Positions 61,914 to 62,054 of a stretch of DNA of 64,000 nucleotides are shown piece after piece. Both the position numbers and the translations under genes were made by a program. Location of the stretch: the sequence record OZ035773.1; one strand, given 5' to 3'. The notes beneath the pieces are model-generated. The model was given only the letters and a program-made list of their open reading frames with translations, searched no databases and was not told where the DNA came from. The stretch's first letter is position 1. The number at the start of each line of letters is the position of its first letter. This DNA is from Justusliebigvirus VEcB.

Positions 61914-61988
61914 ATAAATACCTCCCTTCTGGTGTAATGATTAAATTACATTGACACTTCAAGGAACTCATAGCCGGGTAGATTTAAA

Positions 61989-62054
61989 AGAGTATGGTAC
62001 TCAATATGGCTCCAAACCATAGATCAGGGGGTTCGATTCCTCACCTTGCTGCCA
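61989..62054 (+). tRNA. tRNA-Trp (anticodon CCA)-like, non-canonical 5' half (5' boundary uncertain)
   Basis: anticodon arm tatgg-ctCCAaa-ccata, T-loop ttcgatt, CCA; no 7 bp acceptor partner at canonical distance. Confidence 0.4.

Follow-up and report, generated by a model that had tools for sequence, protein, structure and literature searches.

The described transfer RNAs (tRNAs) that most resemble the gene analyzed here are the allo-tRNAs, of which 8/4 and 9/3 forms have been reviewed (PMC7609411). According to Mukai et al. (2017, PMC5389517), (8/4) tRNAs combine an 8-base-pair (bp) acceptor stem with a 4-bp T-stem into a 12-bp arm, are active in Escherichia coli translation, and have been reported from phages as serine (Ser) and histidine (His) tRNAs. 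The closest of all in that paper is the E-loop (8/4) tRNA1 from acidobacterial soil transcripts, whose acceptor stem is separated from the D-stem by an extra loop. Here we analyzed a 64,000-nucleotide (nt) stretch of the Justusliebigvirus VEcB genome (sequence record OZ035773.1; this whole stretch is referred to as the window, and all VEcB coordinates are positions in it), in which a preliminary description had noted a tryptophan (Trp) tRNA-like element at 61957–62054 whose 5′ half forms no canonical acceptor stem. Our comparison of related phage sequences suggests that this element, with its boundaries revised to 61972–62054, is probably a functional tryptophan tRNA (anticodon CCA, reading UGG) built on a non-cloverleaf plan.

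The VEcB element and its relatives resemble the allo-tRNAs described in PMC5389517 in the 12-bp arm, in their occurrence in phage tRNA clusters, in being missed or mis-scored by standard models and, in one of two subtypes (subtype 1), in a long D-stem closed by a very small loop. In subtype 2, a base is bulged beside the eighth acceptor pair, as in the ‘modified 8/4’ forms of the same source. In contrast, the variable arm of the allo-tRNAs described there is long and self-contained (Ser identity) and their anticodons vary, whereas the phage family has no variable arm, pairs its 6-nt variable region with the 5′ linker and carries Trp identity. In a general sense, the extra loop of E-loop tRNA1 would lie at the site of this linker, but that tRNA has a GCU anticodon and U73, lies in a soil bacterial polycistron with toxin-antitoxin genes and was not charged in vitro; the text describing it is silent on pairing of its variable loop, and the phage family is set apart from it by description rather than by sequence. 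Bacterial selenocysteine tRNA (tRNA-Sec, RF01852) was the best Rfam match of the element (22.4 bits, compared with a gathering threshold of 47). Like the element, it has an 8-bp acceptor stem and a 6-bp D-stem with a tiny loop and lacks the U8-A14 and 15-48 contacts, but its acceptor/T arm is 13 bp (8/5), its variable arm is long and its anticodon is UCA. Canonical tRNA-Trp (E. coli trpT, Bacillus subtilis trnW) agrees with the family in the anticodon CCA within CUCCAAA, G73, A1-U72 (or G1·U72), G18-G19, the T-loop and the spacing between G19 and U33, and with most Bacillus-phage copies also in G2-C71 to G5-C68. It differs in the 7/5 arm, the 2-nt connector with U8, the 4-bp D-stem with a 7–8-nt loop, and a variable loop of 5 nt that is free and takes part in base triples. 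The class II tRNAs (Leu, Ser, Tyr) likewise have an extra helix from the variable region next to the core, but theirs is a hairpin of the variable region alone, whereas the 5′ strand of the additional helix found here comes from the linker between acceptor stem and D-stem, giving a different junction topology. The literature searched, in which coverage of subscription journals was thin and absence is not proof, yielded no description of this architecture.

Comparative sequence analysis shows a predicted plan with an 8-bp acceptor stem, a 4-bp T-stem, a 10-nt linker, a 3-bp Watson-Crick helix formed between the linker and positions 45–47 of the variable region (helix P), and a D hairpin of 5–6 bp with an NGG triloop. 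The single four-way junction would thus be replaced by two three-way junctions joined by helix P. We evaluated this plan on two alignments. A2, the seed, comprises 17 sequences in a gapless MAFFT alignment made without fitting to any structure, and A3 is a model-guided alignment of 38 members (37 distinct sequences) that includes the copy of Shigella phage Sf14 and the Bacillus-phage subtype. The parts of the VEcB copy are as follows.

61972–61978, + strand: acceptor 5′ strand AGCCGGG (positions 1–7), pairing with 62044–62050 at 6/7 positions, with A1-U72; all seven pairs show compensatory change in A3.
61979, + strand: 5′ base (T) of the eighth acceptor pair, partner A62043; standard pair in 37/37 sequences and recovered by RNAalifold de novo.
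61980, + strand: spacer A between acceptor stem and helix P; A in 35/37 sequences.
61981–61983, + strand: 5′ strand of helix P (GAT) within the long linker, pairing with ATC at 62023–62025.
61984–61988, + strand: junction TTAAA from helix P to the D-stem, with the last two A in the places of U8 and N9; near-invariant TT(T)AA(A) in the family.
61989–62003, + strand: D hairpin, stem 61989–61994/61998–62003, loop TGG at 61995–61997 (G18, G19); 6/6 stem pairs with compensatory change in the seed (93% paired) and in the full set, and recovered by RNAalifold de novo.
62004, + strand: position 26 (A), opposite position 44 (G62022); in the family, the 26·44 combinations are GU 20, AC 10, AG 5, AA 1 and AU 1.
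62005–62021, + strand: anticodon arm TATGG/CCATA with loop CTCCAAA and anticodon CCA at 62012–62014; 5/5 stem pairs covary, and the loop is invariant in the seed.
62022–62027, + strand: variable region G-ATC-AG, consisting of position 44, the 3′ strand of helix P (positions 45–47, 62023–62025) and two unpaired purines; A follows the helix in 36/37 sequences.
62028–62042, + strand: T-arm with 4-bp stem GGGG/CCTC and T-loop TTCGATT; 100% paired in both alignments, GTTCGA conserved.
62043, + strand: 3′ base (A) of the eighth acceptor pair, at canonical position 65; pair standard in 37/37 sequences and recovered by RNAalifold.
62044–62054, + strand: acceptor 3′ strand CCTTGCT (positions 66–72, 62044–62050), G73 (62051; G in 37/37 sequences) and encoded CCA (62052–62054).

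The element thus keeps the 5-bp anticodon arm, the 7-nt loop with U33, the T-loop GTTCRA and G18-G19, and departs from the canonical 7-bp acceptor stem, 5-bp T-stem and 2-nt connector (U8, N9), its 10-nt linker ending in AA.

For the 26 pairs tested (eight acceptor pairs, helix P, a 6-bp D-stem with a 3-nt loop, a 5-bp anticodon stem and a 4-bp T-stem), 95.2% of the cells in A2 contained standard pairs, compared with 62% after shuffling and 43–47% when the 3′ partners were slid out of register, and 23 of the 26 pairs showed compensatory change. The values for A3 were 92.9%, 57% and 42–48%, with compensatory change in 25 of 26 pairs. The composition of the eighth acceptor pair was diverse (UA 14, GC 13, UG 5, AU 3 and CG 2 in A3). 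Applied de novo to A2, RNAalifold recovered the 8-bp acceptor stem, the long D-stem, the anticodon stem and the 4-bp T-stem.

Helix P was paired in 97.2% of cells, as opposed to 7–51% in every shifted register, and all three pairs were present in 30/37 sequences; none of 20,000 permutations reached the observed count. At least 13 fully complementary triplet combinations were found, including GAT/ATC, AGT/ACT, GTT/AAC, GCT/AGC, GGT/ACC, GAC/GTC, GTC/GAC, AAC/GTT, AGC/GCT, GGA/TCC, GGG/CCC and ACT/AGT, and members recovered from bacterial and archaeal genomes (see below) added GCC/GGC and GAG/CTC. A covariance model built from A2 (R1) scored the VEcB copy at 92.4 bits and the family members, which are 77–81 nt long, at 51.7–95 bits, whereas ordinary tRNAs in ~2.4 megabases of sequence reached no more than 49 bits. 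Substitutions within the phi92 group fall on unpaired or mismatched positions (C4 and position 49), and G62027, which is A in close relatives, fits an unpaired base. Two alternative registers were rejected. Pairing of GGTAG (61977–61981) with CTGCC (62049–62053), as in a tRNA-Sec-type alignment, leaves no CCA end, and covariation favors the AGCCGGG register. A canonical arrangement with a 4-bp D-stem, a 7-nt D-loop and a 5-bp T-stem would place G·A at 49·65 in this copy; position 49 varies freely, and position 65 covaries with the base after the acceptor strand instead of with 49.

These data also revise the 5′ boundary. The anticodon arm, the T-arm and the 3′ acceptor strand with CCA are canonically spaced, as stated in the preliminary description, and a complementary 5′ strand is indeed absent at the normal distance, where AGATTTA (61980–61986) pairs with the 3′ strand at only 2/7 positions. 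The partial match that had been placed about 25 nt further upstream did not hold up: TTCAAGG (61958–61964) pairs at 5/7 positions, as do three other 7-mers in the preceding 60 nt, and CAAGG (61960) was discarded as a chance match that is missing or unrelated in the copies of UAB_1, KP13-26, Hafnia, Pectobacterium and LPML1. The true 5′ acceptor strand AGCCGGG at 61972–61978, with 6/7 pairs, lies 8 nt farther from the D-arm than normal. Extra sequence between acceptor stem and D-arm is therefore present as proposed, but amounts to 8 nt (a 10-nt linker versus 2 nt) and not to ~25 nt. The other suggestion, a replaced 5′ half, is contradicted by the 5′ strand, linker and D-arm, which all covary with their 3′ partners across distant phages. 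That this is a Trp(CCA) tRNA-like gene with a non-canonical 5′ part was borne out.

A BLAST search with the element alone returned 65 phage records, none of which annotates a tRNA on the element; the features annotated under the matches were the adjacent tRNA-Ile, ‘hypothetical protein’ or nothing. The divergent matches (Klebsiella phage KP13-26, two Hafnia Ounavirinae, Pectobacterium phage DU_PP_I of the Vequintavirinae, and ‘Listeria’ phage LPML1) started at query positions 45–56 (~61970 onward). All of these genomes carry the element within a tRNA array, where it has neither an annotation nor an ARAGORN call. Salmonella phage UAB_1 has an intact element but lacks the CAAGG stretch, and an HNH endonuclease gene there extends right up to the 5′ edge of the element. 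Since homology of the divergent copies begins at ~61970 and UAB_1 keeps the element without CAAGG, the gene starts at 61972; of the extent proposed earlier (61957–62054), the 3′ end at 62054 stands and the 5′ end does not, and the predicted tRNA-Trp-like element is 61972–62054. A further BLAST search with the Hafnia copy added no new groups. Some host labels among these records look doubtful: four ‘Campylobacter phage’ records (A150, A145, C3, A110a) match a 136-nt region at this locus with 99.3% identity, as E. coli phi92-like phages do, and the Trp gene of ‘Listeria phage LPML1’ is 97.6% identical to the Hafnia Ounavirinae copies.

The 8 additional nucleotides could also be read as a short intervening sequence that is removed to leave a canonical tRNA-Trp, and their deletion would indeed restore the canonical length. 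However, the eighth pair and the 4-bp T-stem would stay non-canonical, and the inserted bases covary with the variable loop and therefore act in the folded RNA. We also know of no bacterial splicing machinery for the linker position, and we regard this explanation as extremely improbable.

The source phage is a phi92/rV5-like E. coli myovirus (Stephanstirmvirinae), and the 601 bases around the element are 97–99% identical to dozens of Justusliebigvirus and Phapecoctavirus genomes. The element lies in a dense tRNA array on the + strand (58938–62135), in which ARAGORN identified 16 genes and Rfam one more at 59187–59265. The 16 neighboring tRNAs score 45–69 bits with the Rfam tRNA model, whereas neither ARAGORN nor Rfam at the gathering threshold (RF00005, 29 bits) made a call at 61957–62054. 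In a permissive Rfam search (E ≤ 10) of 61900–62260, only tRNA-Sec was matched (22.4 bits versus the cut-off of 47, E = 0.035); the score of the general tRNA model was lower still. The tRNA-Ile gene starts 5 nt past the CCA of the element, a spacing that occurs three other times in the array.

The failure of ARAGORN and Rfam to call the VEcB copy would fit a decaying tRNA-Trp pseudogene or an att-type 3′-half fragment with a replaced 5′ half, as would the tRNAscan-SE score of 19.55 and pseudogene flag on a Bacillus-phage copy and the many genuine 3′-half Trp fragments with unrelated 5′ sequence in viral contigs. Such a remnant would not be expected to retain 93–95% pairing through many compensatory changes, nor a 5′ strand, linker and D-arm that covary in four phage groups and ~45 distinct sequences; moreover, the gene is 98–100% identical across more than 50 phi92-like genomes. 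Covariation has, in our view, already effectively refuted this explanation, and we consider it very improbable.

Several observations weigh against a functional tRNA with the proposed fold. Helix P was absent from the RNAalifold prediction on A2, which is expected because it is an isolated 3-bp helix inside a multiloop. The proposed fold of the VEcB sequence has a free energy of −17.1 kcal/mol, 1.9 kcal/mol above the minimum, and single-sequence folding of the region was not better than for shuffled sequences (z = 0.39) and used the chance CAAGG pairing. This copy has a C4·U69 mismatch in the acceptor stem and a D-stem of 5 bp with A·A at its base. In addition, A3 was fitted to the covariance model and favors its structure (A2 was not fitted), and kinship among the sequences can inflate the shuffle statistics. 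U8, A14 and the 15-48 pair are absent from the family, and therefore the canonical tertiary network cannot form. Finally, the sole tRNA described with an extra loop at the linker site was not chargeable in vitro (PMC5389517).

Relatives of the VEcB gene were collected by two scans of IMG/VR, the first for T-loops preceded at a set distance by any Trp anticodon loop and the second additionally for ‘AA’ where U8-N9 is expected. Both patterns required a Trp anticodon and fixed unpaired constants only, never covarying positions; an earlier, stricter viral pattern had found near-identical copies only. For 42 of 125 segments from first-scan loci, ARAGORN made no Trp call, and many of these were plain 3′-half fragments with unrelated 5′ sequence. 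Register parsing yielded ~40 distinct genes with a 7–11-nt linker between acceptor strand and D-stem. Altogether, ~45 distinct relatives with the same plan were obtained from phage tRNA arrays of four phage groups, and the hosts of the family-bearing phages include E. coli, Shigella, Klebsiella, Hafnia, Pectobacterium and Bacillus. A scan of one genome per species (185,579 bacterial and archaeal genomes) gave 46 pattern matches and seven family members, five of which adjoin other tRNA genes and two of which have no tRNA nearby. Three of the five, all on contigs of metagenome-assembled genomes (MAGs), lie in dense arrays of 14–18 tRNAs in 6–8 kilobases, which look phage-derived. Two family-bearing arrays on MAG contigs (L218 and L240) also carry a tRNA with a CTA anticodon (amber suppressor; labeled ‘Pyl’ by ARAGORN), which suggests phages with TAG recoding.

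The first IMG/VR scan also recovered two kinds of unusual Trp(CCA) sequences. Four loci (L024, L077, L085, L106) are Trp(CCA)-like, and their anticodon stem of 4 bp (AGGU/ACCU) continues into an interrupted helix. They lack an encoded CCA and a 5′ acceptor strand recognizable by eye, and may be related to the UGA-reading tRNA-Trp with a 4-bp anticodon stem (PMC13092985). Two others (L019, L121), which ARAGORN misses, combine a good 7-bp acceptor stem with a miniature D-arm (~3-bp stem, 4-nt loop) and a 6-bp anticodon stem.

Subtype 1 of the family, with a 10-nt linker, a long 6-bp D-stem and an NGG triloop, occurs in enterobacterial phages and many uncultured contigs and includes the VEcB copy. 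In subtype 2, the linker is 11 nt long (AGA-PPP-TTAAA), the D-arm is closer to the usual form, and the model puts a bulged A before the eighth pair. It is carried by Bacillus phages of the Herelleviridae (Bastillevirinae), including BCP8-2, BCP78, Bc431v3, Hobo and JBP901. The Bc431v3 record annotates its copy as ‘tRNA-Trp... tRNAscan-SE v.1.21; score 19.55; possible pseudogene’, with neighbors scoring 49–76, and the Sf14 record, also annotated with tRNAscan-SE, omits the gene. As far as these records show, tRNAscan-SE does not recover a standard tRNA-Trp fold, the outcome that would have refuted the preliminary description.

The sequence features of the family point to tryptophan identity. 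Bacterial Trp determinants are G73, the anticodon C34-C35-A36 and the first acceptor pair (PMC9976931), and in the family G73 is kept in 37/37 sequences, the 1-72 pair is AU (26 sequences), GU (10) or GC (1), the anticodon loop reads CUCCAAA, and GG as well as GTTCGA are conserved. B. subtilis tryptophanyl-tRNA synthetase (TrpRS) also uses G2-C71, G3-C70, G4-C69 and, as a minor determinant, G5-C68 (PMC9976931); these four pairs are present in most Bacillus-phage copies (GGGGGAG.../...CTCCCCT; 8 of 11 distinct subtype-2 sequences). None of the 38 family-bearing loci contained a canonical tRNA-Trp, and in all 15 large arrays Trp was among the isotypes missed by ARAGORN. In one of them (L158), with 23 tRNAs for 19 amino acids, Trp was the sole missing isotype. 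Shigella phage Sf14 has been reported with 26 tRNAs for 19 amino acids, and the published tables show that Trp is absent (PMC12482277); a family member at 16053–16132 (L216, MF327003; 51.7 bits) lies in an unannotated gap of this array and supplies Trp. The Sf14 copy has a C31·A39 mismatch that makes its anticodon stem effectively 4 bp, and C·A or A·C at 31-39 shortens the stem to 4 bp in 8/37 members.

A tRNA-shaped RNA with Trp marks might alternatively not decode UGG at all and act as a decoy or sponge for a host tRNA-targeting nuclease or toxin or for TrpRS, or as another regulatory RNA. Regulatory-type roles have been proposed for some allo-tRNAs in PMC5389517, where many irregular tRNAs are described as translation-inactive or toxin-antitoxin-linked and the E-loop tRNA as not charged, and such a role would fit a core that cannot form U8-A14, 15-48 and the base triples. 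However, the family conserves what a translating tRNA-Trp would need to keep, namely the anticodon loop, G73, the 1-72 pair, GG and the T-loop. Moreover, its acceptor determinants follow the host group, and the gene fills the Trp gap in near-complete arrays. A decoy or regulatory function is thus unlikely in our assessment.

An anticodon-blind pattern that contained the architectural constants only gave 40 matches in the viral collection. Of these, 31 were Trp members already known and one was a new Trp member (L270); seven were random matches forming no helix, and the remaining one was a Lys gene. The latter (L268; IMG/VR contig 2636415425_000001, 1311–1390, − strand) is an unannotated 80-nt gene with the full scaffold and a UUU (Lys) anticodon, comprising a 7-bp acceptor stem, a G-C eighth pair, the spacer A, helix P as GCG/CGC, TTAAA and a 4-bp T-stem. 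It lies in a tRNA array beside an unusually long 89-nt tRNA-Lys(CUU) and is the sole non-Trp example found. Because the anticodon was CCA in 32 of the 33 true matches and that of L268 is Lys, the scaffold is overwhelmingly but not exclusively used for Trp.

This bias bears on another explanation, that the gene is a working tRNA-Trp whose rewired hinge alters decoding, for example toward some UGA reading, or resists a host or phage activity that removes the normal tRNA-Trp, the structure being the point and not neutral. Hinge residues 9–12, 23–26, 44 and 45 govern UGA read-through by tRNA-Trp(CCA) (PMC13092985), and in the phage family positions 44–47 and the connector are re-paired, 8/37 members have the 31-39 mismatch and a 4-bp anticodon stem, and the scaffold is almost Trp-only. 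The Hirsh G24A, A9C and 4-bp anticodon-stem variants of tRNA-Trp(CCA) are likewise altered in the hinge or at the top or bottom of the anticodon stem (PMC13092985), but they are point changes in a normal cloverleaf with demonstrated UGA read-through, whereas the family has its whole hinge re-paired. On the other hand, the VEcB copy has a normal 5-bp anticodon stem and one Lys(UUU) gene uses the same scaffold. TGA closes 20 of 100 open frames of at least 100 codons in the window and is therefore an ordinary stop in this phage, which also rules out code-4 recoding. We consider an altered-decoding or resistance function decidedly unlikely for the VEcB gene. A broader and tentative idea, which we rate as rather unlikely, is that phages may keep a second, non-cloverleaf scaffold whose near-exclusive use for Trp would arise because re-pairing of the hinge alters function, either by tuning UGG and UGA reading or by evading a host or phage activity that removes or blocks normal tRNA-Trp.

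For the functional tryptophan tRNA that we favor, a plausible three-dimensional arrangement can be proposed. The four core strands (5′ connector, two D-stem strands and variable loop) would form two duplexes, compared with the normal one duplex plus base triples. With 8 bp in the acceptor stem and 4 bp in the T-stem, the coaxial acceptor/T arm consequently keeps its 12 bp. Normal tRNAs have 10 layers, provided by the anticodon stem together with position 26 and the D-stem. Here, the 5-bp anticodon stem, the 26·44 pair and the 3-bp helix P would stack to ~9 layers, which may be possible because the 3′ strand is unbroken from the anticodon stem via position 44 into helix P and 26·44 is G·U in 20/37 sequences. 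The D hairpin, joined by the 5-nt TTAAA on one side and 0–1 nt on the other, would fold back to the acceptor/T arm such that its GG could reach the T-loop and the presumed L-shape would be kept. The RNA would be cut from the array transcript by RNase P and 3′ nucleases and charged by the host TrpRS via G73, A1-U72 and C34-C35-A36. The charged RNA could then be used on the ribosome and supply tRNA-Trp during infection.

Further unusual features were observed in and around the VEcB array. The array contains a second non-canonical tRNA-like gene at 59187–59268 (+ strand) with a UCU (Arg) anticodon, G73 and encoded CCA, in which 7 nt replace the D-arm and an extra 4-bp hairpin with a GUAA loop is found in the variable region. 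It scores 38.6 bits with the Rfam tRNA model, and ARAGORN makes no call. A strong sigma70-like promoter (TTGACA-17-TATAGT) lies just 5′ of this gene, which is 82–86% conserved in FelixO1-like Salmonella phages, ECML-1, jumbo phage PBECO4, Klebsiella phage KpS8 and a Streptomyces phage; these copies are unannotated or labeled ‘tRNA-OTHER’. The two ~400-nt gaps of the array each contain an open reading frame (ORF) on the + strand. The ORF at 60284–60625 matches phrog_8792 of unknown function, and that at 60971–61336 encodes a short HNH endonuclease-like protein (phrog_2255, E = 7.5e-22), which may be truncated as the match covers only profile positions 54–173 of 211. HNH homing endonuclease genes are located directly beside the Trp gene in relatives, upstream in UAB_1 and downstream in DU_PP_I. 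Between tRNA-Ile and the next ORF (62136–62225, + strand), we found a T-arm-like motif, GGAG-GGGTGCGA-CTCC, and a palindrome, TCTTCGAAGA; this segment had no Rfam match at E ≤ 10.

As judged by conservation and covariation, the VEcB element is a conserved tRNA-Trp gene of predicted non-cloverleaf form and thus a putative structural variant of tRNA. It has been missed or called a pseudogene in well-studied groups, including the phi92-like, Moogle/FelixO1-like, rV5-like Certrevirus and Bastille-like Bacillus phages. Because the gene escapes standard pipelines, the tRNA inventories and codon-adaptation analyses published for such phages are one isotype short, as in the ‘19 amino acids’ of Sf14. 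The compact alternative scaffold may be treated differently by host enzymes and could serve orthogonal tRNA design. The rewired region is the hinge that controls UGA read-through by tRNA-Trp, and this question therefore becomes testable with natural sequences. If these RNAs work, a tRNA can do without the single cloverleaf four-way junction, with the same four core strands pairing as two duplexes, and the family would be a natural test case for the requirements of the L-shape.

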